A stretch of 64,000 bases of DNA, taken from a virus. Taxonomy: Duplodnaviria > Heunggongvirae > Uroviricota > Caudoviricetes. The notes under the pieces were generated by a model. It saw only the letters and a list, made by a program, of their open reading frames with translations. It searched no databases and was not told where the DNA came from. The position numbers and the translations under genes were made by a program. This document shows, in pieces, positions 12,275 through 44,570 of the stretch. The DNA is taken from the IMG/VR virus record IMGVR_UViG_3300028666_000024, positions 1 through 64,000 of that record; one strand, written 5' to 3'. The number at the start of each line of letters is the position of its first letter. Positions within the stretch are counted from its first letter, which is position 1.

Positions 12275-12544
12275 TTATTCTAACAATAGTTCTGCTTCTT
12301 CTTTAAGTTTCTTAGCACAATACGACATAACATACCAATCATACCATTTAATTTGTGTATCTCCCGGTTTATGTTCTTCTGGTGTTCCGTTCCACTCATT
12401 AGCTTTCTTGTTGATTTCTTCCCATTGTTCTTCCGTTAATGAGTTTCTAATTTCTTTTGGAAGATCATTACAACAATGTCTTGCAAAAGATTCAGAAGCA
12501 ATTTTCAATAGTTTGGATGCTAGAAGCAGTTCATGTTTTTTCAT
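12275..12544 (-). CDS. hypothetical protein (89 aa)
   Basis: ORF. Confidence 0.5.
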   Translation of the reverse strand: MKKHELLLASKLLKIASESFARHCCNDLPKEIRNSLTEEQWEEINKKANEWNGTPEEHKPGDTQIKWYDWYVMSYCAKKLKEEAELLLE

Positions 12545-12546
12545 TG

Positions 12547-15736: not shown

Positions 15737-15738
15737 AA

Positions 15739-16557
15739 TTATTTACTCCTCCTATCATTTTTGATTGTCAGTTTGGAGGTCTCATAACTCTGGACATATC
15801 CACCAGCACCAGACACTGTATCGATTGTTAGTTTGGAGGTATCACGACTCTGGACAACTCCACCAGATAATGTATCGATTGTCACATTGGAGGTCTCATA
15901 CCTCCTGACATATCCACCAGACACTGTATCGATTGTCACATTGGAGGTATCATAACTCCGGACATCTCCACTAGACACTGTATTGATTGTCAGTTTGGAG
16001 GTATTATAACTCCTAACATCTCTACCAGACACTGTATCGATTGTCACTTTGGAGGTATTATAACTCCAGAGATCTCCACCAGACACTGTATCGATTGTCA
16101 CTTTGGAGGTATCATAACTCCCGACATATCCACCAGATATTGTATTGATTATCAGTTTGGAGGTATTATAACTCCGGACATCTCCACCAGATAATGTATC
16201 AATTGTCACATTACCAGATAAAATAATCAAATTCAGTTTGGTTAACTCAATTGGAATTTTTGTATCTTTTCGAATGATATGAGTTTTCGCCCATTCGTTT
16301 ATTTTATCTCGACAAGCAATTTCTGCTTCTTTGTTGTTAAACCATTCCGGCAGAAAATCCTGATCTGTTTTAAATATCCAATTCTCCATAGGAGTTCGAT
16401 AATCATTATCCTTTGGAAAAATTTCTATTCGAACAAAATCCGGTTTCTTTGTTTTATCGTTTAATTTATTTTCCGATATGATATCTTCATGACTATCTGA
16501 ATATTTGGAAAAGAAAACATCATTTTGAGTTACGATGAACGAGGCTGAGTTACACAT
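15739..16557 (-). CDS. paralog family member 2 (8 repeats)
   Basis: Same architecture as member 1. Confidence 0.8.
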   Translation of the reverse strand: MCNSASFIVTQNDVFFSKYSDSHEDIISENKLNDKTKKPDFVRIEIFPKDNDYRTPMENWIFKTDQDFLPEWFNNKEAEIACRDKINEWAKTHIIRKDTKIPIELTKLNLIILSGNVTIDTLSGGDVRSYNTSKLIINTISGGYVGSYDTSKVTIDTVSGGDLWSYNTSKVTIDTVSGRDVRSYNTSKLTINTVSSGDVRSYDTSNVTIDTVSGGYVRRYETSNVTIDTLSGGVVQSRDTSKLTIDTVSGAGGYVQSYETSKLTIKNDRRSK

Positions 16558-19517: not shown

Positions 19518-19787
19518 TTAAGGTTTTTCTATTATAACCCAATAACCAACAATAAATCTATTTTCCCCATTCTCTTTACCACACTCACAAACAGCCTTTA
19601 TTTTAAAGTCTGGATGTTGATAGAGCCAATGTGAAAGAGAAATTCCAAAATCATCTCTAAAACAATTTGAAAATAAATAAACTCCACAACCATAATCAAT
19701 AGGTTTTGTAAAGTCTGTTTCAGCAAAGATACTGGTAAACAACACAACAAGAATAATTAATACTTTATGTATTAGAGACATCGACAT
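19518..19787 (-). CDS. small secreted Cys-containing protein
   Basis: N-terminal signal-peptide-like hydrophobic segment. Confidence 0.4.
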   Translation of the reverse strand: MSMSLIHKVLIILVVLFTSIFAETDFTKPIDYGCGVYLFSNCFRDDFGISLSHWLYQHPDFKIKAVCECGKENGENRFIVGYWVIIEKP

Positions 19788-20940
19788 ACTCCTCATCGTT
19801 AAGTTTCAAAGCATTCATAATATACTTTTCAAGATACTTTCGACCTTTTTGAATCTCCATCATTTTAAAATAGTCTTGAAGCATTTTGATTTTTCCTTCA
19901 TAAATCAAAAACATCAAGGAAGGAAGAGTCCAGTCTTTTGCACCCGCAGCGAAAGATTTCTTATCCAAATCAAAATTTGCCGCAATACATTCATTTTGAA
20001 TCTTTGAGCAAAAATCCTTATACTTCCGTTCAATCAGACTTATCTTCTCACCAAACTCCGGGAAATACCCCTTAAACTCATCCTGCTCCCCGGAATGTAC
20101 TAAACCAACCAAAGCACGGAGAGAACGGCTTCCTGAGTCTTTGAGATGTGCTATCGAAACATACGTCGGATTCTTAATTTTAATCCGTCTGAAACTTAAT
20201 CCATCAACCTCATAGTGATTATAATCGACAGCAACATATCCCTCTTCAAGTTGCTGTAAAAGTTTAATTCTTTCAAATAGATTATTTTCAGAATTAATTT
20301 TAAAAGATTCAGGATATTTTACATCAAGAATAGACCGTGCAATATACCAAACAAAATTCTTACTACATTCAATATATGTTCCGGCATGACGCACAGTCAA
20401 TAGTGTTAATGATCTTTCTTTGTATGGTGTGATTACTTTATTATCAGGAGAAGTCAATTCAAAAACATATGTGAAATTTTTTGAAATAAACTTCCAAAAA
20501 TTTTTATACTGTTCAGAAGTTTTATAAAATAATTCTTTGAAAGTTAATTCTGAGAACGGCATCTTGGAATTATTTTCAATTACCTGTCTTGTTGCAAAGA
20601 ACCAACGATCCCGATACCAAAAAACATTAATCATACTTCCATCAATCTTCTGGAGAGCATAGGAGTTCTTATAATCAAAATCTTCTGTCTCTTGAAGAAC
20701 TTCTCCTTTGTTATAAAACCTTCGAAAAGGATATGCTATAACATTCCATGTATCAAGTTCAAGAACAATACCACGACATTCATTTACTATAGGATGATTC
20801 TTTGGTGACTCTGTTTGAGAATAATTCAAAATCACCAGAGGATAGATGGCATCTCTGTATGGATTTGCTTTGACTCCAAATTCAATTTCTAAATCTTTTA
20901 AAGTCTTACCTGAGCGAAGATATTCTTGAATTTTAAACAT
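19765..20940 (-). CDS. rnlA: RNA ligase 1 (T4 RnlA-like)
   Basis: NECRGIVLE (like T4 ALECRGIMFE) and motif I KIDGSM (like T4 KEDGSL); 391 aa. Confidence 0.8.
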   Translation of the reverse strand: MFKIQEYLRSGKTLKDLEIEFGVKANPYRDAIYPLVILNYSQTESPKNHPIVNECRGIVLELDTWNVIAYPFRRFYNKGEVLQETEDFDYKNSYALQKIDGSMINVFWYRDRWFFATRQVIENNSKMPFSELTFKELFYKTSEQYKNFWKFISKNFTYVFELTSPDNKVITPYKERSLTLLTVRHAGTYIECSKNFVWYIARSILDVKYPESFKINSENNLFERIKLLQQLEEGYVAVDYNHYEVDGLSFRRIKIKNPTYVSIAHLKDSGSRSLRALVGLVHSGEQDEFKGYFPEFGEKISLIERKYKDFCSKIQNECIAANFDLDKKSFAAGAKDWTLPSLMFLIYEGKIKMLQDYFKMMEIQKGRKYLEKYIMNALKLNDEEYVDVSNT

Positions 20941-21038
20941 TTATATGCTCCTATTTTCAAAATTAATTTTATAACATTTATAATGTCTTGAAGTTGTCAA
21001 CTTTTGCAACTGTTCTAAAGATAATTTTGAAATTTTAT

Positions 21039-21959
21039 TTACTCCAACCTATTGTCATTTTTGATTGTCAGTTTGGAGGTATCACGACTCTGGACATCTC
21101 CACCAGATAATGTATCGATTGTTAGTTTGGAGCTATGATAACTCCTGACAACTCCACCAAACACTGTATCGATTGTCAGTTTGGAGGTATCACAACTCTG
21201 GACATATCCACTAGATAATGTATTGATTGTCATTTTGGAGGTCTCAAAACTCCAGACATCTCCACCAGACAATATATCAATTGTTAGTTTGGAGGAATGA
21301 TAACTCAGGACATCTCCACCAGACAATATATCAATTGTCAGTTTGGAGGTATGATGACTCAGGACACATCCACTATATAATGTATTGATTGTCACATTGG
21401 AGGTATCAAAACTCCGGACATTTCCACCAGATAATGTATTAATTGTCAGTTTGGAGGTCTCATAACTCAGGACATCTCCACCAGACATTTTATCGATTGT
21501 CACATTGGAGGTATCATAACTCCGGACATATCCACCAGACACTGTATTGATTGTCAGTTTGGAGGTATCATAACTCCGGACATATCCACCAGATAATGTA
21601 TCAATTGTCACATTACCAGATAAAATAATCAAATTCAATTTGGTGAACTCAGCCGGAATTTTTGTATCTTTTCGAATGATATGAGTTTTCGCCCATTCGT
21701 TCATTTTATCTTGACAGGCGATTTCTGCTTCTTTGATATTAAACCATTCCGGCAGAAAATTCTGATCTGTTTTAAATATCCAATTCTCCATAGGAGTTCG
21801 ATAATCAGTATCCTTTGGAGAAATTTCTATTCGAACAAAATCAGGTGTATCTGTTTTGTCATTCAATTTATTTTCCGATATGATATCTTCATGACTATCT
21901 GAATATTTGGAAAACAAAACATCATTTTGAGTTACGATGAAAGAGGCAGAGTTACACAT
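21039..21959 (-). CDS. paralog family member 3 (11 repeats)
   Basis: Same architecture; C-terminus is NDNRLE. Confidence 0.8.
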   Translation of the reverse strand: MCNSASFIVTQNDVLFSKYSDSHEDIISENKLNDKTDTPDFVRIEISPKDTDYRTPMENWIFKTDQNFLPEWFNIKEAEIACQDKMNEWAKTHIIRKDTKIPAEFTKLNLIILSGNVTIDTLSGGYVRSYDTSKLTINTVSGGYVRSYDTSNVTIDKMSGGDVLSYETSKLTINTLSGGNVRSFDTSNVTINTLYSGCVLSHHTSKLTIDILSGGDVLSYHSSKLTIDILSGGDVWSFETSKMTINTLSSGYVQSCDTSKLTIDTVFGGVVRSYHSSKLTIDTLSGGDVQSRDTSKLTIKNDNRLE

Positions 21960-22061
21960 ATTGATTAATGTCCTTTTAAATAATAACCTGCTCCGAGTTG
22001 TGAGGAATCCTGATCACATTCGTAACTCAGGAGTAAAACCTCAGAGCAGGTTATTTGTTCT

Positions 22062-23723
22062 TTACTCTTCCTTCTTAGACAGACCACTGAATTGACTTGA
22101 CTTCTTGATGGGTTTCGTTATCGCCGACGCAGTTTTGAAAGCATCTGCATTGTAAACATAAACCCCACCATTGTTTGCCGAAAGATACTTCCCGCTTGCT
22201 GACTGCCGAAGAGCTGTAATCTTTTCAGCATAGGTCTTACTGATCGGAACGATATAGTTTTCACCGGCATCCTTCGGCGTGAATGGGTCTATCTCACTAT
22301 CCAATCGGTTGGCGATGTCACATGCATTTCTTATTTCTGCACCTGTCCAACCTTCATCATCAGGACGAACATCCTTGACGTTTGGATATTTCTTCAACCA
22401 TATCTCCCATATCTTTGCCCGCTCTGCTGCATTGGGAAGGTCAAAGAACCACTGCCCGAAAGTAAACCGGCGCTGGAGTTCGGGAGGAATTGCAGCAGCA
22501 CTATTACAGGAAGCAATCCAGAAGGTATTTTTTCCGGCCAAAGCCTTGATGATTGACAGGGCACGTTTAGTTCTCTCCCCGGTTTCACCGACCAAACTTC
22601 CCTTGAGAGCAGACAGGTCAAGAGTAATCGTTGGAACACCACCATAGGCACCGAGAGCAACCGAAGAAAGAGATTTTCCAGAACCAGCAGGACCGATTGC
22701 AATAGTCCCGGAACACTGCTCCTCTTCCATAAAGGTAAGCATTGCACCGAGTATCTCTTGTGAAGTACCACTGGTATCACCAACACCACCGTTTGCATAA
22801 CCGGCACCGGCGATTGACTTCTCGATTTCTTCAATCCGGATAACGGCATTGGGAGGATTTTTTCCAGTCATGATGCGCCGAGCAAATTCCTTGAAAGGAT
22901 CAAGTCCTCCGATATCTTCGGGTCTCATTCCGGACATATCGACCGTCAGACCTGCAACGCTGTTGATGGTTTGAGTCCAACGCTTGCGGAGAATCTCAGG
23001 TTCAAAACCCTTATCAGGACTGATTGACAGAGACACACTCTGTTCCGTTGCATAGGCAGACAGACCGCGAGTTGACTGAAGGGATGTCTTCGTTGCATCT
23101 GCATCAATCGTAACACCAATCTTTTCCAATTCCGCGCGAGCATCGTTCAGCGTACTGTTAATTATCTTTTCCCTTGCTTCATCATTGGGAACACCATCAT
23201 CGATTTGAAAAAGATCTTGTGAAAGAGATGGAGGAATCGTTGTTCCCTGTGCTGTGAGAAGGATAAGCAGTTTTCCACTCTGTTTGAAAATATCGCGAAG
23301 GTTTGCTATTGCCTGTTCAACCGCGACTTCCTTGAGTATACGCTGTGCTCCAAGAATACAAACAACGATTTTTGCAGGGTCGAAAGAACCCTCATCACTC
23401 TCAACCATGGTCCATTTCTTTTCGTCAAGCAGGACGTTCAGTGCATCAACCGGCTGGAGCAACATTGCCGGGATAGGAATCATTGGAGGATTGGGATCAA
23501 AGGAACCGGGATCTTTAAAGAGGATTAATTTTTCCACAACGGGTTTGCCTGATTCATTAACCGACTGATAACCCCTCACCATATCCCATGCAATGATCGG
23601 GGTTTTTGCCGACAAATTTTCGGCTATGTCCTTCAGACTGGCAAAATCATCTGAAGTATTAACTATTGCCAGCGGAACACCAACCAACCTTGCCCGTTTA
23701 ATCTCATCAATAAGGATACTCAT
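22062..23723 (-). CDS. AAA-type ATPase (553 aa), GC-rich, with atypical Walker B
   Basis: Walker A GPAGSGKS; SRH-like CNSAAAIPPELQRRF; no canonical hhhhDE motif; local GC clearly above the genome background. Confidence 0.6.
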   Translation of the reverse strand: MSILIDEIKRARLVGVPLAIVNTSDDFASLKDIAENLSAKTPIIAWDMVRGYQSVNESGKPVVEKLILFKDPGSFDPNPPMIPIPAMLLQPVDALNVLLDEKKWTMVESDEGSFDPAKIVVCILGAQRILKEVAVEQAIANLRDIFKQSGKLLILLTAQGTTIPPSLSQDLFQIDDGVPNDEAREKIINSTLNDARAELEKIGVTIDADATKTSLQSTRGLSAYATEQSVSLSISPDKGFEPEILRKRWTQTINSVAGLTVDMSGMRPEDIGGLDPFKEFARRIMTGKNPPNAVIRIEEIEKSIAGAGYANGGVGDTSGTSQEILGAMLTFMEEEQCSGTIAIGPAGSGKSLSSVALGAYGGVPTITLDLSALKGSLVGETGERTKRALSIIKALAGKNTFWIASCNSAAAIPPELQRRFTFGQWFFDLPNAAERAKIWEIWLKKYPNVKDVRPDDEGWTGAEIRNACDIANRLDSEIDPFTPKDAGENYIVPISKTYAEKITALRQSASGKYLSANNGGVYVYNADAFKTASAITKPIKKSSQFSGLSKKEE

Positions 23724-23890
23724 AACAACCTCCTGATTTTGTTTTAGTGGTGATCAATTCCTCACCCCCTTAAAATACAACATCCCGGAACTAAATGCAA
23801 GTATTTTTAAAAGAAAATTTCAAAATGTTGTGAATCTTTTTTAAAAGTTCTAACATCTTGAATTTCAAAGACTTACAAAAACTATGAATT

Positions 23891-24325
23891 TTACTGTCTG
23901 TGAGGACGAGTTTTGAAAATCTTCTTATAGAGTACACGATTCAATTTTGCGCACCAGAGTTTATCCGAGGAGATTTTTCGTTCAATCTTTGGAATGTCTT
24001 TAAGGAGTGCAAAGTAAATATCAACGAGCCAGTCATGATAGGCGATGTTATCATCAATCCTTTTTGATGCAGCATTACGCCATGTTAAGAGATCTTCCTT
24101 ATCGTGTTGGATGAGAGTCTTGTCCCTCTTATCATCAACATTTTTTTCAAGGATCTCTGGATAAGGTTTACTGAGTTCTTCATGTAAAGCAGCCATTGGT
24201 GGATTAACATTCATAGCATAAATTTCTGGATAAGGTTTACTGAGTTCTTCATGTAAAGCAGCCATTGTGACCGACCGATTATCAAATGTCTTCTTAACTA
24301 CTGTCTTGATTTTCTTCTTCGTCAT
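23891..24325 (-). CDS. hypothetical protein with duplicated 17-aa segment (PPMAALHEELSKPYPEI x2)
   Basis: ORF plus a DNA tandem duplication. Confidence 0.5.
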   Translation of the reverse strand: MTKKKIKTVVKKTFDNRSVTMAALHEELSKPYPEIYAMNVNPPMAALHEELSKPYPEILEKNVDDKRDKTLIQHDKEDLLTWRNAASKRIDDNIAYHDWLVDIYFALLKDIPKIERKISSDKLWCAKLNRVLYKKIFKTRPHRQ

Positions 24326-24362: not shown

Positions 24363-25511
24363 TTAAATTTTATCTTCTGATTTTGAATCTTCTGCATCTT
24401 GTTTTAAAAGATACTCAGGGTTTACTGCCTTAAAACTAATGCTTTGATCATAAGTTCTCCACACAATGCCTTCTCTTTGGCGCTTTAACAACTTACTATC
24501 TCCAACACTCCATTTGATAATATCATCAACAGTGTCAGGAATTTGAACCTCAGTACCAAGCACAGGAACCATTTTTAAATTAAGTTGGAAGCAAATATTT
24601 CTCAACTGATCTAAGGAGTATCGTTCCCCGGTCTTGATGTTAATAATATTAAAGATGTAAAAATCCAATTGAGAAAGTTTATAAATATTTTTTTGAATTC
24701 CCGGCCCGATAACCTCTCCCTGAATTGCTAACTGAATTTTTGTCTTCTTGTAATAATCTTTCAAAATCTGTTTTAAATTATAAATCTTTGCAACCTGCGA
24801 CCAGTTAGAATTATCCCTTTCAGATTTTCTAACGTTATGAGAACAGATTCCAAATTCACTTACAAACCAGCCGAGTTTTTTAAACCACCAAGTACCGGAC
24901 TGTCCTTCTAACTTCTCAGTGAGATAATATAACTTTGACTTATCTTTGACAAGGAAAGGAAGATTCTGAATTCTCTCCTCATCTGTGCGTTTGATAAATC
25001 CCGGCCATCCTTTTGTGTTTCTGTTGCAATAATTTCTATACCATTTAAAACGTTTCAAATACTTATAGTGCCATGCTCTCTTTTTAGGAGTTGTTGTATT
25101 ACTCTCCCTATCAGATTGAGATTCATACTTTACAATTCCCATAAGTTCTGTGAGATCATCACCCTCTTTGTAAGACTTTGGAATTTTATTTCCAATCTGT
25201 TTTAAACAGTTTTCAACATTGGGAAGGGAAATAAGAAGTCCCTCACTGATTTGCTTCTTCAGTTTTATAATCTTAACACGATACTTACGAGACAACATAA
25301 AGGCAAAGTATTCAATTTTTGGAACAATGCTATCTGTTTCAATATAGAGAGCAAGATCACCAACTTTAAATTCATCCTTATTCACCACGCAGTGCCATCC
25401 CAACACTGTAACAACTTCAATTTTATCTGCACCGGGAATTGTATCAAGAGAAATAATCTTCTCAACATGTGCTAATACTCTTCCAGACTTCTCGATTATT
25501 TCTTCGCTCAT
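24363..25511 (-). CDS. RNA ligase, DraRnl/Rnl5-like, with N-terminal tRNA-binding-type OB fold
   Basis: N-terminal GADKIEVVTVLGWHCVVNKDEFKVGDLALYIE (Myf/Trbp111-like OB pattern); motif I TEKLEGQSG, motif IV EGIVWR, motif V FKAVN..LLK. Confidence 0.55.
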   Translation of the reverse strand: MSEEIIEKSGRVLAHVEKIISLDTIPGADKIEVVTVLGWHCVVNKDEFKVGDLALYIETDSIVPKIEYFAFMLSRKYRVKIIKLKKQISEGLLISLPNVENCLKQIGNKIPKSYKEGDDLTELMGIVKYESQSDRESNTTTPKKRAWHYKYLKRFKWYRNYCNRNTKGWPGFIKRTDEERIQNLPFLVKDKSKLYYLTEKLEGQSGTWWFKKLGWFVSEFGICSHNVRKSERDNSNWSQVAKIYNLKQILKDYYKKTKIQLAIQGEVIGPGIQKNIYKLSQLDFYIFNIINIKTGERYSLDQLRNICFQLNLKMVPVLGTEVQIPDTVDDIIKWSVGDSKLLKRQREGIVWRTYDQSISFKAVNPEYLLKQDAEDSKSEDKI

Positions 25512-28412: not shown

Positions 28413-28625
28413 CTAAACCATCACCTCCGGAACATAATTGTGTTTCTTATCCTTCTTGATATCATTCATCTTGATCCTCGACCATGTAACGGTATTTGCT
28501 GAAACATGACGACTCTTGTTGTGTTGCTTGCTAAGAGTTTGTCCCTTTATAATCTTCTTTGTTATTGAATGTCTCCTACCCTTGATATGTTTCTCTCTCC
28601 TTGCAACCTCTTGTAAATTTACCAC
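28413..28625 (-). CDS. small basic protein (70 aa)
   Basis: GTG start with a GAAGGAGG RBS; K/R/H-rich. Confidence 0.45.
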   Translation of the reverse strand: MVNLQEVARREKHIKGRRHSITKKIIKGQTLSKQHNKSRHVSANTVTWSRIKMNDIKKDKKHNYVPEVMV

Positions 28626-28669
28626 AACTCCTCCTTCGTAAGAATTTTTAAAGTGATTTGAAATTAATT

Positions 28670-28717
28670 TAAAATTGGTAGACTTTTTGAATTGAGATTA
28701 ACGTGACAGGTTATCGT
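28670..28717. repeat. Direct repeat, copy 1 (taaaattggtagactttttgaattgagattaacgtgacaggttatcgt)
   Basis: Copy 2 at 29081-29142 carries an internal 14-bp duplication; an inverted partial copy (aaaagtctacc) is at 29189-29199. Confidence 0.8.
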
Positions 28718-29028
28718 CCACCTCCTTTAATTAGTTTTCCACAAAATGGGCAAAACCTCATACCCTCAGTGTGTAGCAACTTTTCAAAAAGTCCATCGCA
28801 CGCGGTCCTATAAAAAGCAATATCCTTTACGGCAGTTAATTGCCACTCGCACACATCGACAGGAGCGAGGCGTGGACAACACTCCTGATTGTATTTGGCT
28901 GTTTTAGTATAATCAATGATGGTTTTGTTATCACTATTTCCGCACCGTAATTTTTTGCCTTGATGCTTATTTGCTATCCAATAGCACTGGTTTTTAAACT
29001 CCTCCCACTCCTCATTGACCCGAAGCAT
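28711..29028 (-). CDS. Cys-rich GC-rich protein (105 aa) flanked by ~47-bp direct repeats
   Basis: AAGGGG RBS; CPFCGK and several other Cys; GC higher than the surroundings. Confidence 0.5.
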   Translation of the reverse strand: MLRVNEEWEEFKNQCYWIANKHQGKKLRCGNSDNKTIIDYTKTAKYNQECCPRLAPVDVCEWQLTAVKDIAFYRTACDGLFEKLLHTEGMRFCPFCGKLIKGGGR

Positions 29029-29080
29029 CTTCTACCCCTTTCGCGAGTCGTTCAGCGGCAAGGCAGGCTGAACAACGATG

Positions 29081-29142
29081 AAAATTGGTAGACTTTTTGA
29101 ATTGAGATTAACGTGACATAATTAACGTGACAGGTTATCGTA
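29081..29142. repeat. Direct repeat, copy 2
   Basis: See copy 1. Confidence 0.8.
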
Positions 29143-29238
29143 GTTCACCTGCACAATGCTCCGTTGTGTTTCAATTCCAGTTACGTTTCTGTTTAAAAGT
29201 CTACCAAAAGATTTACTGTAAGTCTTTACTGTAAGTCT

Positions 29239-30081
29239 TTACTGCTTAACAGGAATCTGCAACATCATTCCACCACTAGAACCCTCAACCTGTGGTCGGG
29301 CACCATTCCACTTATCAATAGCTGCCCTCTGAATCTTGAGTTGTTCCCATTGAATAAGTTGTGGAGTAAGAGAAGAAGTAAGAATATTATTTGCTTTTGC
29401 TTCACCTTCTGCAATAGCAATCTTCTTCTGTGCCTCTGCCTGTGCCGTTATGATTTCATTCTGAACCTGTCCTGCCATTTGTGTAGCAGTAATCTTTGCG
29501 TTCAGAGCATTAACAACTTGCTCAGGAAGACGAAGAGCACCGATGAAACCGAACTGGACTATACTATCTCCGTATGTATTAATCTTATTGTTGATACGAA
29601 TAACTACAGAATCAAGTAGTTCTTCCTTCTTCGGCCCGTAAATTTCATCAACTGTATACTTTGAGGCAACATCCGAGAAAGCATCCCTTGCTACGTTATG
29701 CAGGAATCCATTTGTATACATAGTCAAATCATCACTTCGAAACTGCACATAGAAGGAAGGAATCTTTGACTTGATAAGTTGGTGACTGAGATTGATATCT
29801 GCATTAATCACCATACCTTCTTTGGAGTTGAAAGTAATATCCTCTCCTGATTCCTTTGTCCATACCGTTGTCTGAACAAAAGTTGGATATTCAACAATCT
29901 GTTTTGCAATTGGGTTGAACCAAATCCAACCTGTCTGCAAAGGAATCTGATCTGCTCCCCGATTGTCTCCGAGTTTGTTAATTACAATACCCTCATGTCC
30001 CGGCCCGATTGTGGTACAACCCGCGAAAAGAATTGCGGCGAACGAAAGAAGAACTGTAAGATTGATAAATCTCCGACTCAT
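29239..30081 (-). CDS. SPFH/band-7 (prohibitin/HflKC-like) lipoprotein
   Basis: Lipobox ILFAGC after a basic N-terminus; band-7 domain with a coiled-coil AQAEAQKKIAIAEGEAKA. Confidence 0.7.
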   Translation of the reverse strand: MSRRFINLTVLLSFAAILFAGCTTIGPGHEGIVINKLGDNRGADQIPLQTGWIWFNPIAKQIVEYPTFVQTTVWTKESGEDITFNSKEGMVINADINLSHQLIKSKIPSFYVQFRSDDLTMYTNGFLHNVARDAFSDVASKYTVDEIYGPKKEELLDSVVIRINNKINTYGDSIVQFGFIGALRLPEQVVNALNAKITATQMAGQVQNEIITAQAEAQKKIAIAEGEAKANNILTSSLTPQLIQWEQLKIQRAAIDKWNGARPQVEGSSGGMMLQIPVKQ

Positions 30082-30302
30082 ATTATAGAGTCTCCTTCTT
30101 AGTTGATGTGAAAACTTTGAGAGTAAATTTAAAAATCCATTCTGCTGAAAAAACTCCACCGATAATCAAAACAAAACCTATGATAAGTCCTATAATATTT
30201 GCTACCGTATTAGACATATCTGCAAGGTTTGCTCCAATCTGAAATACAACACCACCAACAAACAACCACACTAACCAAAGAGAAACAGCAACAACATTCA
30301 TA
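29870..30302. repeat. 433-bp direct repeat copy A (flanks the MTase insertion)
   Basis: Near-identical to 32180-32612. Confidence 0.85.
30083..30301 (-). CDS. small membrane protein (NfeD-like partner of SPFH), duplicated copy A, no RBS
   Basis: Identical to 32393..32611 except near the start, but lacks that copy's RBS. Confidence 0.4.
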   Translation of the reverse strand: MNVVAVSLWLVWLFVGGVVFQIGANLADMSNTVANIIGLIIGFVLIIGGVFSAEWIFKFTLKVFTSTKKETL

Positions 30303-30474
30303 TTGCCGAAAGGTTTTTGAGGGAAATTGATATTTGATTTCAGCATAAACATGTTTATCAAAAGGCTCACCCGCAGCGTGTCCAGATAGTGTCCCAGATA
30401 ATGGTTCTGGCACACTGGAATTTATTACAGCTCTTTTTAGGGCAGAATAATCTACGAACATTAAGAAGCTCTTT

Positions 30475-32091
30475 TCAGATAAATAATTTATCGAGGTTTA
30501 TTTGAATTTGTTCTAAGATGCTAATATCTTTTGATTCAATATACCTTTGTGTTAGTTTGGATATTAAATTATGCAATTCGACTTCAGCAGTTAAATCAAA
30601 ATTAATTTTTCTAAAGGGAATATTTGCTATTGGCTTTTCTGAAAATTCAACAATACTGCCTTTGACTATCCCATTGTGTCTTAACCAATCAAAAACATAT
30701 TTACTATTTAAAAATGCCAATATATAGAAAATACTTTCTTTCGTTTCTTCTTTTTTAAATATTGCTGTGACATCTTGAGTTGGAAAAATCCCTTTATTAA
30801 CCATAGCAAATCGAAAGTATTTTTTGCTGGAGATTCTTTCCTTGCACGGTACAAATATTCTTTCAACTTCTTTATTAAATAAATTAAAACTTCTTAAAAA
30901 TACCCATTCCCAATAATTAGCTTTTTGTTTGTACTGATAACGTTCATTTAAAAGTTTTTTATAAGGTTGCAATTGCTTATAAAAATTTGGAAACAATACC
31001 TGAAATTGTTCTTCCGTAAGAAGCTCATCTTTTATAAAAAGGTAATTAGTAATTTCATTGTGGTAAAAGGGAACAAGATTTTTTGCTTTTACAACTTTTA
31101 AAATATGTTTATTTTCATTTTCATTTAAATCAAAATTGCTTATCTGAAATGCTTTATCTAAACCGCTAACCATACCATTTCCAATATCACAAAATTCTTT
31201 AATCAAATACAATTCATGGGAATTTGGATTCGCAGTTTTTTCTTCAAAAAGACTGAGAACTTCGGTTAAATTTGAATTAATATTTGGTTTTTTACATTTT
31301 TCTTCAAAAAGAGTGAGTTCCTTTATTATGTCTGCATGAGCGAGTATCCAATTTTGATTTTTCTCAAATTGTGGAATATTAAGATATTCAGTCTTTTCTT
31401 GCTGCACTCTTCCTTTTAGGTTAATCAAAATGCTATTATTCAACTTTTGAGTTGAATAATATTTTGCTATCTTTATTTTATTGTTTTTTATGTTTTGTGA
31501 TTTAACAAATTTAAATATAATTGTTGATACAGCTGCATTCTCAAAAATAGGAGTTTCGTTAAAGTGGTAAATATCCACAAAATAACCTTTTTTTATCATA
31601 TAATTGCGGAGCGTTATTGAATTTGTTGTATTTAGCCAATATTCAGGCGTAATAAAAATCAATTGCCCATTTTCCTTTAATAATTCTATGGATTTAATTA
31701 TAAATATTGAAGAGTAATCACATAGGGAATTGCAATATTTATTCCATAAAATATTATTTGATAATTCATCTTTTAATTCTGTTTCAAGATTTTTCCAGCG
31801 GATATACGGAGGATTTCCTATAATAAGATCAAATTTATTTTCAATATCATCTGAGATAAAACTCCGATTTTTAACAAAGCTTATGTAAGAGGGCTTGATG
31901 ATTGATTTATCTATCTCATAGGCAGTTATATTATTAAATCCTTTTTCTTTTATGATGTCCAAAAAAACACCTTCACCACAGCAAGGCTCAAGTATTTTAG
32001 AATCTTTATCTAATTCAGCTAAAGAAACCATAAATCGTGCAACAATTTCTGGAGTCATATATTGACCAAACCTATTTTTATCATTAGCCAT
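30475..32091 (-). CDS. N6-adenine DNA methyltransferase (gamma-class, NPPY)
   Basis: Motif I ILEPCCGEGVF and motif IV IIGNPPYIRW; C-terminal target-recognition region. Confidence 0.75.
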   Translation of the reverse strand: MANDKNRFGQYMTPEIVARFMVSLAELDKDSKILEPCCGEGVFLDIIKEKGFNNITAYEIDKSIIKPSYISFVKNRSFISDDIENKFDLIIGNPPYIRWKNLETELKDELSNNILWNKYCNSLCDYSSIFIIKSIELLKENGQLIFITPEYWLNTTNSITLRNYMIKKGYFVDIYHFNETPIFENAAVSTIIFKFVKSQNIKNNKIKIAKYYSTQKLNNSILINLKGRVQQEKTEYLNIPQFEKNQNWILAHADIIKELTLFEEKCKKPNINSNLTEVLSLFEEKTANPNSHELYLIKEFCDIGNGMVSGLDKAFQISNFDLNENENKHILKVVKAKNLVPFYHNEITNYLFIKDELLTEEQFQVLFPNFYKQLQPYKKLLNERYQYKQKANYWEWVFLRSFNLFNKEVERIFVPCKERISSKKYFRFAMVNKGIFPTQDVTAIFKKEETKESIFYILAFLNSKYVFDWLRHNGIVKGSIVEFSEKPIANIPFRKINFDLTAEVELHNLISKLTQRYIESKDISILEQIQINLDKLFI

Positions 32092-32169
32092 ATTTTATCC
32101 AATTTAAGAAATTATATTTAATGGACATACGAGTCTTTTATAAATGATCTCAATGCCTAAACCATTAAA

Positions 32170-32469
32170 TTATTCTAAGGTCTGAACAAAAGTTGGATAT
32201 TCAACAATCTGTTTTGCAATTGGGTTGAACCAAATCCAACCTGTCTGCAAAGGAATCTGATCTGCTCCCCGATTGTCTCCGAGTTTGTTAATTACAATAC
32301 CCTCATGTCCCGGCCCGATTGTGGTACAACCCGCGAAAAGAATTGCGGCGAACGAAAGAAGAACTGTAAGATTGATAAATCTCCGACTCATATTATAGAG
32401 TCTCCTTCTTAGTTGATGTGAAAACTTTGAGAGTAAATTTAAAAATCCATTCTGCTGAAAAAACTCCAC
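32170..32469 (-). pseudogene. truncated 5' fragment of the SPFH gene (first ~97 codons), duplicated copy B
   Basis: Identical to the N-terminus of 29239..30159, then diverges and stops. Confidence 0.7.
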
Positions 32470-32612
32470 CGATAATCAAAACAAAACCTATGATAAGTCC
32501 TATAATATTTGCTACCGTATTAGACATATCTGCAAGGTTTGCTCCAATCTGAAATACAACACCACCAACAAACAACCACACTAACCAAAGAGAAACAGCA
32601 ACAACCTTCATA
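32180..32612. repeat. 433-bp direct repeat copy B
   Basis: See copy A. Confidence 0.85.
32393..32611 (-). CDS. small membrane protein (72 aa), copy B with AAGGAG RBS
   Basis: RBS AACAAGAAGGAGTATCAAT-ATG. Confidence 0.55.
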   Translation of the reverse strand: MKVVAVSLWLVWLFVGGVVFQIGANLADMSNTVANIIGLIIGFVLIIGGVFSAEWIFKFTLKVFTSTKKETL

Positions 32613-32628
32613 TTGATACTCCTTCTTG

Positions 32629-33084
32629 TTAATAGTTTAGTCCGTTAAAATATTTTGCAAACAATTTCAAACTATTTTTAATCTTTTCCAAATCTCTCTT
32701 TTGGAATTCTTTATACTTTTCATAACCAAAATTTTCAAGATTATCAATTATATTTTCAGTTTCTTTTGACAAATAATCATTACAAACCATTTCAAATCCT
32801 TCAATGATTATTTCTAAATCTCTTTTAAAAATATTTATCCCTTCTTTATAATTATCTGTTCCTACCGATACAGGAGGATAGGACTGAGTAATTTTTTTAA
32901 AATATTTCAGACGAGGTATAATAAACTTTGCTATTGTTCTATCCAAATTCCAAACCTCAACATCAGAATATCCTCTTGTTATCTTTTGAAATATCTGCTT
33001 GCAATTAAATAAAGTTAAGTGCCAACGAAACAACCGATAGATCCAGTAATAAATATTTAAAATTGATTTAAAGAAGTTTTTCAT
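32629..33084 (-). CDS. hypothetical protein (151 aa)
   Basis: ORF. Confidence 0.5.
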   Translation of the reverse strand: MKNFFKSILNIYYWIYRLFRWHLTLFNCKQIFQKITRGYSDVEVWNLDRTIAKFIIPRLKYFKKITQSYPPVSVGTDNYKEGINIFKRDLEIIIEGFEMVCNDYLSKETENIIDNLENFGYEKYKEFQKRDLEKIKNSLKLFAKYFNGLNY

Positions 33085-33086
33085 CT

Positions 33087-33557
33087 TTAGAAAACTTTAT
33101 ACTCTCTTTCCAGAATTTTGATTGCATATTCTACTTCTTTATCACCAAGACCTAACATATCGTTACAAAGAACAAGTCTATCCATCAGATGAGCCATATC
33201 CGAACAATCATCAAGAATAACGAAGGAAGTTATCTTTTGATTTGTTACATATTCAAATTTTGGTTTATCGATGAATGCTTGAATCTCATATCCCCTATCA
33301 ATATTACTTTTGAATACAGGAGTTATGCCAACAACCTTTCCTTTGAAACCCTGAAGCGCGAGAAATCTATGCATTACTCTTGCAGATATTTCTTTTCTCC
33401 AATCACTTGAAAGAACAACAACTGCTCCTGTTGCTTCTATAATTTTGTTTAATTTCTCAACATGATACCGGGAGGGAATATCATGAAATTGATCCTGTGT
33501 ATCATCAGGGATAGCATTCATCACACCATCTATATCAAGGAATATTATTTTACACAT
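33087..33557 (-). CDS. HAD-superfamily phosphatase (156 aa)
   Basis: Motif I IIFLDIDGVMN. Confidence 0.55.
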   Translation of the reverse strand: MCKIIFLDIDGVMNAIPDDTQDQFHDIPSRYHVEKLNKIIEATGAVVVLSSDWRKEISARVMHRFLALQGFKGKVVGITPVFKSNIDRGYEIQAFIDKPKFEYVTNQKITSFVILDDCSDMAHLMDRLVLCNDMLGLGDKEVEYAIKILEREYKVF

Positions 33558-33585
33558 TTTTAAATTTTCTCCTTTTAAAACTATT

Positions 33586-33786
33586 TCAATTTTTCAAAAC
33601 TAATTTAAAATTTTCACCATCTTTTTCAAGTTCTGTTGCCGCATACAAATGAACAACTTCACCCTTCTCCGTTATGCAATATGAATACATTCCATCTATA
33701 TGTTCAAAAATTATAAAGGTTGAACCATCAGACACTTCACAATTAATTCTTGAACCTTTTTTCAAATCACAAAGCAACATTTTTAA
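33586..33786 (-). CDS. hypothetical small protein
   Basis: AAGGAG RBS before the internal ATG. Confidence 0.35.
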   Translation of the reverse strand, partial: LKMLLCDLKKGSRINCEVSDGSTFIIFEHIDGMYSYCITEKGEVVHLYAATELEKDGENFKLVLKN

Positions 33787-35519: not shown

Positions 35520-35598
35520 TGGCAGTGCCGATGGGATTTCAACCCACGATAACCACAGTGACAGTGTGGTGCATTAAAGCAGACTATGCTACGGCACT
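35520..35598 (-). tRNA. tRNA-Asp (GTC), CCA encoded
   Basis: Hand-folded: acceptor AGTGCCG/CGGCACT, anticodon stem CCACA/TGTGG, loop CTGTCAC, T-arm GTGGG-TTGAAAT-CCCAT. Confidence 0.7.
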
Positions 35599-35612
35599 AA
35601 ATTTAAAATTGG

Positions 35613-35686
35613 CTGGCAAGGCAGGGATCGAACCTGCGACAACCAAATTAACAGTTTGGTGTTCATACCAACTGAACTACTTGCCA
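35613..35686 (-). tRNA. tRNA-Asn (GTT)
   Basis: Acceptor TGGCAAG/CTTGCCA, D GTTC/GAAC, anticodon loop CTGTTAA, T-arm GCAGG-TTCGATC-CCTGC. Confidence 0.7.
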
Positions 35687-35689
35687 ATA

Positions 35690-35764
35690 TCTAACTGACA
35701 GGATTTGAACCTGTGTTGACTTGCTCCCAAAGCAAGTGCCTCAACCAAACTAGGCTACAGTTAG
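35690..35764 (-). tRNA. tRNA-Pro (TGG)
   Basis: Acceptor CTAACTG/CAGTTAG, D GCCT/AGGC, anticodon loop TTTGGGA, T-arm ACAGG-TTCAAAT-CCTGT. Confidence 0.7.
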
Positions 35765-35770
35765 TTTATA

Positions 35771-35844
35771 TAGCGGGAGTCAGATTCGAACTGACGATAG
35801 GGAGCTTATGAGGCTCCTGTCTTAGACCACTAGACAACCCCGCA
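35771..35844 (-). tRNA. tRNA-Met or Ile2 (CAT) with a 1:72 mismatch
   Basis: Anticodon loop CTCATAA, D GTCT/AGAC, T-arm GTCAG-TTCGAAT-CTGAC; position 1 T and 72 T are unpaired. Confidence 0.6.
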
Positions 35845-35857
35845 GTCAATATCAAAA

Positions 35858-35934
35858 TGGAGCAGCAAGTGGGATTTCAACCCACGTAATTTCGCTTGGA
35901 AGGCGAACACATGAAGCATCTATGTTATTGCTGC
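35858..35934 (-). tRNA. tRNA-Gly (TCC), CCA encoded
   Basis: Acceptor GCAGCAA/TTGCTGC, anticodon loop CTTCCAA, T-arm GTGGG-TTGAAAT-CCCAC. Confidence 0.65.
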
Positions 35935-37492: not shown

Positions 37493-37814
37493 TGTGATGG
37501 TTAAGTGATGTCAAGTGAAGTGTTGGTGAGGTAGAGGGTAGTGAGGTGATGGTAAGGTAACGTGAAGTATAGTGGAGTATAGTGATGGTTAAGTGCAGTA
37601 ATGTTTAGTCTAGTAATGGTAAAGTGCAGTAATGTTTAGTTTAGTAATGGTATGGTGAAGTTATGTTTAGTTTAGTAATGGTAAGGTGACGTGATGTTTA
37701 GTAGTGGTAAAGTAATGTACTGTGGTGTTTAGTTTAGTAATGGTAAGGTGACGTGATGTTTAGTAGTGGTAAAGTAATGTACTGTGGTGTTTAGTAATGG
37801 TGTGGTGAAGTGTT
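37493..37814 (+). repeat. Cytosine-depleted G/T/A-only tandem array, ~31-bp period (gtttagtttagtaatggtaaggtgacgtgat and variants), ~10 units
   Basis: Only ~9 C in ~320 nt of the plus strand; units repeated, the last two pairs near-identical. Confidence 0.85.
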
Positions 37815-37869: not shown

Positions 37870-37952
37870 GGCCGGATGGTGGAAAGGTAGACACAAGGGA
37901 CTTAAAATCCCTCGGAAGCAATTCTGTGAGAGTTCAAATCTCTCTTCGGCCA
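37870..37952 (+). tRNA. tRNA-Leu (TAA), type II
   Basis: Acceptor GGCCGGA/TTCGGCC, D GTG/CAC with GG loop, anticodon stem AGGGA/TCCCT, loop CTTAAAA, long variable arm, T-arm GAGAG-TTCAAAT-CTCTC. Confidence 0.7.
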
Positions 37953-38083
37953 CTTTCAAACTTCTTTCAAAGAAAACTTTAAAATGCCTGAAATTCTTTT
38001 AAAAATAAATTGTAAAGAACAAACATGCAGTCTGTGTGATTGGTTTGATTATACTTGTTTAAAATCACAAAAGGAGATTTCAA

Positions 38084-40344: not shown

Positions 40345-41109
40345 ATGTGTAAATCTGCCTCTTTCATCGTAACTCAGAATGATGTTTTATTTTCCAAATA
40401 TTCTGATAGTCATGAGGATATCATATCGGAAAATAAATTGAATGACGAAACAAATACACCTGATTTTGTTCGAATAGAAATTTTTCCAAAGGATAATGAT
40501 TATCGAACTCCTATGGAGAATTGGATATTTAAAACAGATCAGGATTTTCTGCCGGAATGGTTTAATATCAAAGAAGCAGAAATCGCCTGTCGAGATAAAA
40601 TAAACGAATGGGCGAAAACTCATATCATTCGAAAAGATACAAGAATTCCGACTGAGTTCACCAAACTAAATTTGATTATTTTATCCGGTAATGTGAAAAT
40701 CGATACAGTGTCTGGTGGAGATGTCTGGAGTTATAATAAATCCAAACTGACAATCAATACATTATCTGGTGGATATGTCCTGAGTTATGATACCTCCAAT
40801 GTGACAATCGATACAGTGTCTGGTGGAGATGTTAGGAGTTGTGATACCTCCAAACTGACAATCAATACAGTGTCTAGTGGAGATGTCCGGAGTTATGATA
40901 CCTCCAAACTGACAATCAATACATTATCTAGTGGAGTTGTCCAGAGTCGTGATACCTCCAAACTAACAATCAATACAGTGTCTGGTGCTGGTGGATATGT
41001 CTGGAGTTATAATACCTCCAAACTAACAATCGATACATTATCTGGTGGATATGTTATGAGTCGTGATACCTCCAAACTAACAATCAAAAATGATAAGAGG
41101 AGTAAATAA
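40345..41109 (+). CDS. paralog family member 4 (7 repeats; starts MCKSASF)
   Basis: Conserved AAAGGATAACTCA-ATG upstream. Confidence 0.8.
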   Translation: MCKSASFIVTQNDVLFSKYSDSHEDIISENKLNDETNTPDFVRIEIFPKDNDYRTPMENWIFKTDQDFLPEWFNIKEAEIACRDKINEWAKTHIIRKDTRIPTEFTKLNLIILSGNVKIDTVSGGDVWSYNKSKLTINTLSGGYVLSYDTSNVTIDTVSGGDVRSCDTSKLTINTVSSGDVRSYDTSKLTINTLSSGVVQSRDTSKLTINTVSGAGGYVWSYNTSKLTIDTLSGGYVMSRDTSKLTIKNDKRSK

Positions 41110-42679: not shown

Positions 42680-43501
42680 ATGTGTAACTCAGCCTCGTTC
42701 ATCGTAACTCAAAATGATGTTTTCTTTTCCAAATATTCCGATAGTCATGAAGATATCATATCGGAAAATAAATTGAATGACAAAACAGATACACCTGATT
42801 TTGTTCGAATAGAAATCTCTCCAAAGGATAATGATTATCGAACTCCTATAGAGAGTTGGATATTTAAAACAGATCAGGATTTTCTGCCGGAATGGTTTAA
42901 TATCCAAGAAGCAGAAATCGCCTGTCGAGATAAAATAAACGAATGGGCGAAAACTCATATCATTCGAAAAGATACAAAAATTCCGGCTGAGTTCACCAAA
43001 TTGAATTTGATTATTTTATCCGGTAATGTGACAATCGATACATTATCTGATGGATGTGTCCAGAGTTATGAGACCACCAAACTGACAATCAATACATTAT
43101 CTGGTGGAGATGTCCGGAGTTATGATACCACCAAACTGACAATCAATACAGTGTCTAGTGGAGATGTCCGGAGTTATAATACCTCCAAAGTGACAATCAA
43201 TACAGTGTCTAGTGGATATGTCCGGAGTTATGATACCTCCAAAGTGACAATCAATACATTATCTGGTGGAGATGTCCGGAGTCATCATACCTCCAATGTG
43301 ACAATCGATAAAATGTCTGGTGGAGATGTCTGGAGTTATAATAAATCCAAAGTGACAATCGATAAAATGTCTGGTGGAGATGTCTGGAGTTATAATAAAT
43401 CCAAAGTGACAATCGATACAGTGTTTGGTGGAGATGTCCAGAGTCGTGATACCTCCAAACTGACAATCAAAAATGATAAAAGGATAACTCAAAATGTGTA
43501 A
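42680..43501 (+). CDS. paralog family member 5 (8 repeats); C-terminus reads through into the next copy's RBS region
   Basis: Ends KNDKRITQNV, overlapping the start of member 6. Confidence 0.8.
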   Translation: MCNSASFIVTQNDVFFSKYSDSHEDIISENKLNDKTDTPDFVRIEISPKDNDYRTPIESWIFKTDQDFLPEWFNIQEAEIACRDKINEWAKTHIIRKDTKIPAEFTKLNLIILSGNVTIDTLSDGCVQSYETTKLTINTLSGGDVRSYDTTKLTINTVSSGDVRSYNTSKVTINTVSSGYVRSYDTSKVTINTLSGGDVRSHHTSNVTIDKMSGGDVWSYNKSKVTIDKMSGGDVWSYNKSKVTIDTVFGGDVQSRDTSKLTIKNDKRITQNV

Positions 43502-44306
43502 CTCAGCCTCTTTCATCGTAACTCAAAATGATGTTTTGTTTTCCAAATATTCAGATAGTCATGAAGATATCATATCGGAAAATAAATTGAATGACAAAAC
43601 AAAGAAACCGGATTTTGTTCGAATAGAAATTTCTCCAAAGGATAATGATTATCGAACTCCTATGGAGAATTGGATATTTAAAACAGATCAGGATTTTCTG
43701 CCGGAATGGTTTAATATCCAAGAAGCAGAAATCGCCTGTCGAGATAAAATAAACGAATGGGCGAAAACTCATATCATTCGAAAAGATACAAGAATTCCGA
43801 CTGAGTTCACCAAACTAAATTTGATTATTTTATCCGGTAATGTGACAATCGATACAGTGTCTGCTGGATATGTCCGGAGTTATAATACCTCCAAAATAAC
43901 AATCAATACATTATCTGGTGGATATGTCCTGAGTTATGATACCTCCAATGTGACAATCGATACAGTGTCTGGTGGAGATGTTAGGAGTTGTGATACCTCC
44001 AATGTGACAATCGATACAGTGTCTGGTGGAGATGTTAGGAGTTGTGATACCTCCAAACTGACAATCAATACAGTGTCTGGTGGAGATGTTAGGAGTTGTG
44101 ATACCTCCAAACTGACAATCGATAAAATGTCTGGTGGATATGTCTGGAGTTTTGATACCTCCAAAGTGACAATCGATACAGTGTCTGGTGGATATGTCCG
44201 GAGTTATCATACATCCAATGTGACAATCGATACAGTGTCTGGTGGAGATGTTTGGAGTTTAAATACCTCCAAACTGACAATCAAAAATGATAAGAGGAGT
44301 AAATAA
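43494..44306 (+). CDS. paralog family member 6 (8 repeats)
   Basis: Tandem with member 5. Confidence 0.8.
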   Translation: MCNSASFIVTQNDVLFSKYSDSHEDIISENKLNDKTKKPDFVRIEISPKDNDYRTPMENWIFKTDQDFLPEWFNIQEAEIACRDKINEWAKTHIIRKDTRIPTEFTKLNLIILSGNVTIDTVSAGYVRSYNTSKITINTLSGGYVLSYDTSNVTIDTVSGGDVRSCDTSNVTIDTVSGGDVRSCDTSKLTINTVSGGDVRSCDTSKLTIDKMSGGYVWSFDTSKVTIDTVSGGYVRSYHTSNVTIDTVSGGDVWSLNTSKLTIKNDKRSK

Positions 44307-44570
44307 ACTACAGACTATTTATCAACCTTTAATCTTTCAAATCTTTTCAAAGGAGTTTTCAAATGAGTATCGGTCTTGGTGGAATTCTGTTTGTTGTTTT
44401 TTTGATTCTGAAGTTGGTGTAATTTCATGTTCATGGTGGTTTGTGTTTATGCCGCTTTATGCAGGATTTGTGTTAGCAATCTTATTTTGGATTTTTGCAC
44501 TATGTCTTACAGGAATAGCAGAGGTATTGTTTCCTAGGAAGTGGTAGAAAGTCTTTCAAACAATTTTAAA

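Follow-up and report, generated by a model that had tools for sequence, protein, structure and literature searches.

An orphan HincII-type methyltransferase between direct repeats of a two-helix/SPFH operon in a T4-like phage: anatomy and probable capture by microhomology-mediated joining

Introduction

How can a large lytic phage take a foreign gene into the middle of an operon without losing the operon? The question is raised by a locus in the IMG/VR virus record IMGVR_UViG_3300028666_000024 (Caudoviricetes), of which positions 1 to 64,000, referred to here as the window, were analyzed. At this locus the gene for an adenine-specific DNA methyltransferase lies between two copies of part of an operon encoding a small membrane protein and an SPFH protein, and an earlier note made on the DNA had described it as a methyltransferase cassette placed in the operon by duplication. 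Orphan methyltransferases are known as a means by which phages escape restriction and are assumed to originate from bacterial restriction-modification (R-M) systems; the capture itself is rarely visible. The analysis presented here makes it quite probable that a T4-like phage captured an orphan anti-restriction methyltransferase by microhomology-mediated joining, with a duplication that spared the operon and with precise reversion possible. Phage capture of a host methyltransferase is already known, and what this case adds is an unusually complete record together with a non-disruptive, reversible architecture: the scars of capture are all preserved, namely a nuclease stub, a microhomology of 9 nucleotides and a long duplication that shows how a gene can enter mid-operon without destroying it.

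Structure of the insert and of the repeats

Pairwise alignment of the two copies with their flanks shows that positions 29870–30295 and 32180–32605 are 100% identical over 426 nucleotides and that, after one mismatch (30296/32606), nine further bases match, giving copies of 436 nucleotides at 29870–30305 (copy A) and 32180–32615 (copy B). The repeats are collinear with one mismatch in 436 nucleotides, and the earlier figure of a near-exact repeat of 433 bp is true to within 3 nucleotides. A repeat search returns 29870–30169 and 32180–32479 at 100% identity (300 nucleotides, spacing 2310). The flanks beyond both copies are unrelated and cannot be aligned. The direct repeat is far beyond chance. 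Between the copies lie 1,874 bases of insert, the unit of insert plus one copy is 2,310 bp, and the boundaries of the duplication and those of the insert fall at exactly the same places. This coincidence argues for a single event or for a single-crossover integration, and against a tandem duplication combined with a separate insertion.

According to the list of open reading frames (ORFs) every gene of the region is on the minus strand, as are all parts of the locus described here in the direction of transcription. The operon is immediately preceded by orf151 (32629–33084), a native phage gene with a weak match to phrog_11543 and a GC content at third codon positions (GC3) of 0.23, as is usual in the backbone of this phage; its presence identifies the native left context of copy B. 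Copy B (32180–32615) comprises 4 nucleotides of upstream DNA, the whole membrane gene (32393–32611; 72 residues, two hydrophobic helices, AAGGAG 7 nucleotides upstream), a 1-nucleotide spacer and the first 212 nucleotides of the SPFH gene. The resulting truncated gene, SPFH′ (32170–32391, 73 residues), encodes SPFH residues to 71 and then Leu-Glu-stop read from the insert. The insert holds 88 nucleotides of donor upstream DNA (32092–32179, GC content 0.23), an intact methyltransferase gene (30475–32091, 538 residues), a spacer of 13 nucleotides (30462–30474) and codons 1–55 of a HincII-family endonuclease (30297–30461; Pfam PF09226). The recombination joint (30296–30305) was placed by aligning both copies with three homologous R-M loci. 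Beyond it, copy A (29870–30305) begins a membrane gene (30083–30301) in which the ATG is kept, with a K2N change and without a Shine-Dalgarno sequence, and this is followed by the full-length SPFH gene (29239–30081, 280 residues), whose own AAGGAG lies within the duplicated segment. Inspection of the sequence thus bears out the earlier description of copy B as a ribosome-binding site (RBS) and membrane gene with a cut SPFH gene, and of copy A as a full SPFH gene preceded by a membrane gene that lacks an RBS.

An insert within a direct duplication of its target superficially resembles the footprint of transposition, and the earlier note had spoken of a target duplication. Nevertheless, a transposable or homing element with target-site duplication is almost certainly not the explanation. 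There is no transposase, integrase or homing-endonuclease gene in or beside the insert, the insert ends (30306/32179) carry no inverted repeats, and one of them falls midway in a truncated gene, at a microhomology of 9 nucleotides. Moreover, 426 nucleotides is orders of magnitude above known target-site duplications. The transposon reading was ruled out for want of a transposase and terminal inverted repeats and because the duplication is too long; what stands of the earlier description is the core layout, a methyltransferase cassette set into the membrane/SPFH operon by duplication, and what falls is the target duplication taken as a transposition footprint.

Origin of the insert

The methyltransferase contains motif I (LEPCCGEGVFL) followed by motif IV (IIGNPPY) and matches the Pfam families Eco57I (E 1.7e-22) and N6_Mtase (E 1.7e-12); its best solved relative is M.TaqI (E 1.7e-16, residues 7–198). 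Motif I, the NPPY form of motif IV and a C-terminal target-recognition domain in an M.TaqI-like protein place it in the gamma class of N6-adenine methyltransferases, in agreement with the NPPY adenine methyltransferase first noticed at 30475–32091. Alignment with six homologues (58–70% identity) indicates that the gene is full length without frameshift and that every invariant residue is kept, the sole difference being an in-frame tandem duplication of 20 residues (31222–31317) in a variable linker. This 60-nucleotide in-frame duplication (31222–31257 / 31282–31317), whose copies LTLFEEKCKKPNI and LSLFEEKTANPNS are 81% identical, is absent from the six homologues and sits in the linker that joins the catalytic part to the target-recognition part. 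A tblastn search with a full-length homologous nuclease as the query found no intact cognate nuclease in the 64-kb window, and the methyltransferase is thus an orphan in this window. The closest known homologue is on an IMG/VR phage contig (L001; 67% identity by BLASTP, up to 70% in alignment), where it is also an orphan and has neither a nuclease stub nor an SPFH context. No close homologue was found in 50,697 GenBank phage records.

The stretch next to the methyltransferase (30340–30470) had been taken for a short GC-richer junction. The GC content is indeed higher, 0.39 in the stub versus 0.27 in the methyltransferase, but the stretch is a coding fragment of a HincII-family endonuclease and not a spacer. 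The ORF from 30461 matches PF09226 (HincII) at positions 1–49 of 247 (E 2.4e-18); it corresponds colinearly to residues 1–55 of full-length homologues of 255 residues, after which homology ends, and over these 55 residues it is 83.6% identical to the full-length nuclease of locus L003. Beyond residues 1–55, tblastn finds nothing of the nuclease in the 64 kb. The reading frame of the stub runs on into membrane gene copy A, in a frame other than that of the gene, as far as a stop at 30210. N-terminal homology to PF09226 is therefore present, and a complete enzyme of ∼250 residues including the catalytic core is not. The catalytic residues of HincII presumably lie beyond residue 100, in which case the catalytic core would be missing from the stub. 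The stub would thus be inert, and the locus is no longer a restriction system.

The arrangement from which such a stub could be cut is found in five homologous loci, which are bacterial or unassigned: contigs L002, L003 and L005, with methyltransferases 64–66% identical to that of the window, L004, which is a duplicate locus, and L008, a rumen metagenome-assembled genome (MAG). In each, a few bases separate the methyltransferase gene from a downstream gene for a HincII-family nuclease of ∼255 residues, which is uninterrupted in four of the five (the L002 copy has one in-frame stop codon), and a match to solved HincII along the whole protein is seen for the L003 nuclease (E 5e-106). The presence of the nuclease stub next to the methyltransferase shows that the cassette came from an R-M system, and by homology the insert derives from a HincII-type type II R-M locus. 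Among the 50,697 GenBank phage records no HincII-family nuclease fragment was found, and a genome scan for the donor yielded one rumen MAG alone, at 52% identity. Since the best protein homologues reach 67% identity by BLASTP (at most 70% in alignment), the donor is unsampled.

Base composition adds little to this history. The high GC content of the stub is due to Gly, Ala and Pro codons, since its GC3 is just 0.24 (methyltransferase, 0.21). GC content was also considered as a clue to the residence time of the cassette and rejected, because this R-M family is AT-rich in any host, with GC3 of 0.18–0.25 even in a contig of 56% GC.

The target operon

The SPFH protein, of the Band 7/prohibitin family, matches Pfam Band_7 (PF01145, E 1.4e-24) over profile positions 2–176 of 176 and phrog_200 “lipoprotein” (E 1.7e-60); it has one N-terminal hydrophobic segment, and Cys22 is invariant among 20 homologues. 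The truncated SPFH′ keeps the signal peptide and lipobox, and its Band_7 match is limited to positions 2–46. The pair of genes had been considered unusual in a phage and likened to NfeD-SPFH operons, and neither view holds. SPFH homologues are found by tblastn in 690 of the 50,697 phage records, including Staphylococcus, Pseudomonas, Burkholderia, crAss-like and Lak phages, and phrog_200 is a large family. The 72-residue partner, with its two hydrophobic helices, matches no Pfam family at E ≤ 0.01 and shows no NfeD match even at E ≤ 10, so that NfeD membership was ruled out; it fits instead a family of two-helix partners.

This family emerges from comparison of loci. The closest SPFH homologues are bacterial (at most 60% identity, many of them Patescibacteria) and often have an N-terminal extension of ∼70–90 residues with two helices. 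Among the best 18 IMG/VR loci with SPFH homologues, for which top identities are 43–53%, the two-helix partner is a separate ORF of 67–95 residues ending at the SPFH start in 15 and is fused to SPFH in the other three, and in all 18 nothing lies between partner and SPFH. Profiles of the separate ORFs and of the fused extensions match each other (P 98.7%, E 3e-16). The 72-residue protein of the window matches the partner profiles by hhalign (P 82–87%, E 4e-6 to 1e-5), pairwise BLASTP with the fused N-termini not being significant, and its position and topology fit the family. These comparisons suggest that the target is a conserved two-gene module, common in phages, and that the uninterrupted operon of relatives comes closest, among the evidence at hand, to showing the ancestral state.

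The module shows a gene fission/fusion polymorphism of its own: the partner is fused in frame upstream of the SPFH lipobox in some phages (L013, L014, L016) and in Patescibacteria-like bacteria (P0121, P0122), and is a separate gene in most phages. The GC3 of the module and of the neighboring orf105 is 0.35–0.41 versus ∼0.23 for the phage backbone, and the module may itself be an older acquisition.

Of 60 long ORFs, 37 have a Shine-Dalgarno-like motif in front, versus a background of 6–9%. Given this high usage, it is functionally meaningful that the motif has been lost in front of copy A of the membrane gene and kept in front of copy B and of SPFH. Copy B of the membrane gene is presumed to be the expressed copy; copy A, which is overlapped by the out-of-frame tail of the stub, is probably poorly translated.

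The recombination joint and the route of capture

Nine nucleotides, CAATATGAA (30305–30297), are common to the nuclease gene, where they encode Gln-Tyr-Glu (codons 53–55), and to the start of the membrane gene. At the joint the homologous nuclease genes read TTT AGA CAATATGAA TAT CTA, copy B, which has the membrane gene with its native start, reads GTAT CAATATGAA GGT TGT, and copy A reads TTT CGG CAATATGAA T GT TGT; the shared nucleotides are thus followed by TAT in the nuclease gene, by GGT in the membrane gene and by T-GTTGTT in copy A. From this alignment the crossover appears to lie in or just after the identity, and the T at 30296, the sole mismatch between the repeats, fits the first base of the next nuclease codon (Tyr56). 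By our own calculation, a randomly placed joint would show an identity of 9 nucleotides with a probability of ∼1e-5 at the prevailing base composition. Microhomology at one joint points to illegitimate recombination.

By its gene content the phage to which the window belongs is large, lytic and a distant relative of T4: the window encodes a baseplate wedge gp6-like protein, a gp63-like RNA ligase/tail-fibre attachment protein, an RNA ligase and a nicotinamide phosphoribosyltransferase, as well as the tRNA genes described below. In such a phage, capture probably proceeded as follows. A fragment of 1,874 bp from a HincII-type locus would have been taken up and joined to replicating phage DNA by illegitimate, microhomology-mediated recombination at two points 426 bp apart; template switching in recombination-dependent replication and the attachment of its ends to separate copies of the genome are plausible routes. 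As the joints lie in the “wrong” order, the segment of the operon between them is present on both sides of the insert, and insertion and duplication would have occurred in one step. The upstream copy would supply the membrane gene with its RBS and the downstream copy the full SPFH gene with its own, leaving the operon undisrupted and adding an intact methyltransferase in the same direction of transcription. Homologous recombination between the 426-bp repeats would excise a circle of 2,310 bp and restore the original operon exactly, and the insert should persist only while the methyltransferase is useful. Because the repeats are expected to recombine, the persistence of the insert suggests either a very recent event or ongoing selection.

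The structure is also exactly that of a single-crossover integrant, with repeats that are perfectly identical. A Campbell-type integration, in which the illegitimate joints would have been made earlier, in another phage or in a small circular by-product with the insert and one copy of the 426-bp segment, and a single homologous crossover in the operon would have followed and produced the flanking duplication automatically, differs from direct capture solely in where the illegitimate events occurred. We regard it as unlikely. T4-type phages have been shown to form mini-circles by recombination between flanking direct repeats, and reinsertion of these circles has been proposed (PMC2839356). Homologous landing sites exist, given how widespread the target module is in phages, and the closest methyltransferase homologue (L001, 67–70%) is itself on a phage contig. 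However, L001 lacks both the nuclease stub and the SPFH context, a second phage with the same unit was not found in the IMG/VR and Joint Genome Institute (JGI) scans, and perfect identity of the copies is equally expected from a recent event in situ. A further extension, that the 2,310-bp unit acts as a homology-guided mobile cassette whose excised mini-circle re-enters co-infecting phages having the two-helix/SPFH module, seems to us rather doubtful; were it true, a population would toggle and share anti-restriction methylation without a dedicated recombinase, and the target operon would never be inactivated.

Function of the methyltransferase and assessment of the capture

HincII and HindII recognize GTYRAC. 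By descent, the captured methyltransferase most likely methylates GTYRAC; it is probably co-transcribed with the operon, and it would be expected to protect phage DNA from HincII-type restriction in hosts. The window contains 17 GTYRAC sites versus 41 expected. Avoidance of GTYRAC was considered as a sign of HincII pressure and rejected as non-specific. Over the whole window ∼20 palindromic hexamers occur 0–2 times versus 10–44 predicted from base composition, and this depletion indicates broad restriction-site avoidance in the phage.

Alternatively, the methyltransferase might be kept for another role, such as epigenetic control of expression or packaging or DNA marking, or might be a non-functional passenger soon to be lost. 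Orphan methyltransferases can have regulatory roles (compare the review PMC13076061), and the weak translation signals, the internal duplication of 20 residues and the non-specific avoidance of GTYRAC would all be compatible with such a role. Direct descent from a restriction system, attested by the adjacent nuclease stub, and an intact ORF with all conserved residues kept speak for protection instead, and the 17 HincII-type sites in 64 kb would otherwise be unprotected. In addition, an unstable 426-bp repeat would be expected to be lost quickly without selection in a recombination-proficient type of phage (compare PMC2839356). On balance a role other than protection, or none, appears distinctly unlikely.

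Several observations weigh against capture for protection by the route proposed here. No close relative was found in IMG/VR, GenBank phages, JGI metagenomes or a collection of 5.8 billion proteins, and the empty site has not been seen. Specifically, blastn of 28600–33600 against GenBank phages returned a match of 60 nucleotides to a Lak phage inside SPFH and nothing else; IMG/VR scans with SPFH, with the HAD protein described below and with a 32-mer from the repeat revealed no sister phage; two scans of JGI metagenomes, with a junction 26-mer and with a degenerate SPFH 32-mer, revealed neither a sister phage nor the same junction; and a query made by joining the orf151 and orf105 proteins gave a single match among proteins, 37% identical, on a T4-like contig without SPFH. 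The T at 30296, one base past the perfect microhomology, could be a later substitution. At the joint at 32179/32180 the donor upstream DNA has no counterpart against which microhomology could be read: comparison of the 88-nucleotide donor segment with the upstream regions of five to six homologous loci gave no alignment. This segment has no strong Shine-Dalgarno sequence and no convincing promoter; just a weak GGA and no recognizable promoter precede the start codon of the methyltransferase, and scans for promoters and terminators gave counts at chance level. The 20-residue duplication may affect the enzyme, the specificity is deduced from homologues 58–70% identical and from their gene neighborhood, and the depletion of GTYRAC is limited to its palindromic members and is shared by nearly all palindromic hexamers of the phage.

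Finally, the linear duplicated arrangement rests on the assembly. An exact repeat of 426 bp exceeds short-read length, so that short-read assembly alone is no proof of the arrangement, and no independent contig in the IMG/VR and JGI scans confirms it. The locus could then be an assembly artefact or the product of a mixed population of wild-type phage and another molecule bearing the methyltransferase, the assembler having passed twice through the 426-bp segment that they share and so produced a duplication present in no single genome. However, neither joint shares more than 9 nucleotides (SPFH codon 71/donor at one, nuclease codon 55/membrane gene at the other), which is far below an assembler k-mer; the joints are therefore not assembler-made and exist in real molecules. 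Given the joints, the sole alternative is a mixture of wild type with a 2,310-bp unit, either as a free circle or in tandem array, which would itself be the excision product of the same structure. The reading frames, RBSs and microhomology also make a coherent biological picture, and an artefact appears very unlikely.

If capture occurred as proposed, the locus offers a concrete model, open to testing, of how large lytic phages gain genes, combining illegitimate joining, rescue by duplication and reversibility through homologous recombination. It is also a natural construct for measuring the rate at which such an insertion is lost once the pressure from HincII-type hosts is removed.

Other features of the window

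Close to the SPFH operon a direct repeat of 47 nucleotides, CGATAACCTGTCACGTTAATCTCAATTCAAAAAGTCTACCAATTTT (28671–28717 and 29081–29141, minus strand), brackets the Cys-rich orf105 (28711–29028). The downstream copy overlaps the orf105 stop codon; the upstream copy has an internal tandem duplication of 14 nucleotides and is preceded by an apparent degraded orf105-like C-terminus (HCAGELR* versus FCGKLIKGGGR*). The GC3 of orf105, 0.41, is raised like that of the SPFH operon, and orf105 may be a second, older duplication-flanked cassette beside the operon.

Five tRNA genes (Asp, Asn, Pro, Met, Gly) form an array at 35520–35934, and a tRNA-Leu gene follows at 37870–37953. Near them are a gene for a HAD “Swiss Army Knife RNA repair” domain protein (33087–33557) and RNA ligase genes (19765–20940 and 24363–25511), a combination of predicted products that suggests a tRNA-repair toolkit. 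A GC-rich island at 22001–24000 (0.41–0.48 versus 0.33 for the window) includes an ORF of 553 residues (22062–23723) that matches phrog_8638 and may be another horizontally acquired gene.

The window is also rich in repeats. Arrays of 54-nucleotide (18-residue) units occur in three paralogues (12447–13084, 15699–16336 and 20939–21738) and in a second paralogous trio (40586–41101, 42921–43598 and 43735–44412) with near-identical 5′ regions of 300 nucleotides at 40344, 42679 and 43493; both sets are possibly repeat-rich fibre or surface proteins. Tandem repeats have units of 11 nucleotides at 1–138, 10 nucleotides at 2565–2650, 51 nucleotides at 10861–11112 and 31 nucleotides at 37525–37800, the last just before tRNA-Leu, and an exact doublet of 69 nucleotides (61631–61768) lies inside an ORF of 807 residues. 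A dispersed repeat of ∼136 nucleotides, 98–100% identical and present at 838–973 and 10391–10513, 9.5 kb apart, may be a repeated regulatory region.

Comparison with known systems

As in NfeD-SPFH pairs, an SPFH/Band 7 gene is immediately preceded, on the same strand, by a gene for a small membrane protein; unlike in those pairs, the 72-residue protein has no NfeD domain and appears to belong to a two-helix family whose members are encoded by a separate gene or fused to the N-terminus of the SPFH lipoprotein. Compared with the HincII system (R.HincII structures 1KC6 and 2AUD), the stub aligns with the N-terminus of the family and the homologous loci share the order methyltransferase, spacer, nuclease, whereas in the window only residues 1–55 of ∼255 remain and the methyltransferase is 58–70% identical to its nearest homologues.

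The closest functional parallels are the lactococcal phage enzymes. M.Phi93I and M.Phi93DAM of 936-type phages are acquired methyltransferases for which protection of DNA has been shown experimentally (PMC4190342), and phage phi50 has been described as having a methylase domain of LlaI from pTR2030 (Hill et al., 1991, as cited in PMC4190342). The likeness lies in a lytic phage with a type II adenine methyltransferase, no working cognate nuclease and presumed self-protection, and in bacterial homologues within complete R-M systems. The cases differ in that the donor system here is HincII-type, neither the enzyme nor the nuclease fragment having a close homologue in the 50,697 GenBank phage records, and in that the scars of capture (stub of 55 codons, microhomology joint, 426-bp duplication) are preserved; conversely, protection was shown for the lactococcal enzymes and is predicted for that of the window.

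In architecture the locus most resembles insertions in T4 and its relatives. The T4 insertion/substitution vectors of Selick et al. (1988) reportedly give single-crossover “insertion-duplication” integrants. In T4-type phages, PeSL cassettes are excised between flanking direct repeats as mini-circles that have been proposed to reinsert (PMC2839356). In all of these, as in the window, foreign DNA lies between direct repeats of contiguous phage sequence and is bounded by them exactly, and, as with PeSL cassettes, homologous recombination between the repeats of the window would be expected to excise a small circle that could reinsert. The difference is that the repeats described here are 426 bp of coding sequence made by the insertion itself, and not pre-existing promoter-terminator cassettes of 50–100 bp or a target cloned in a plasmid.

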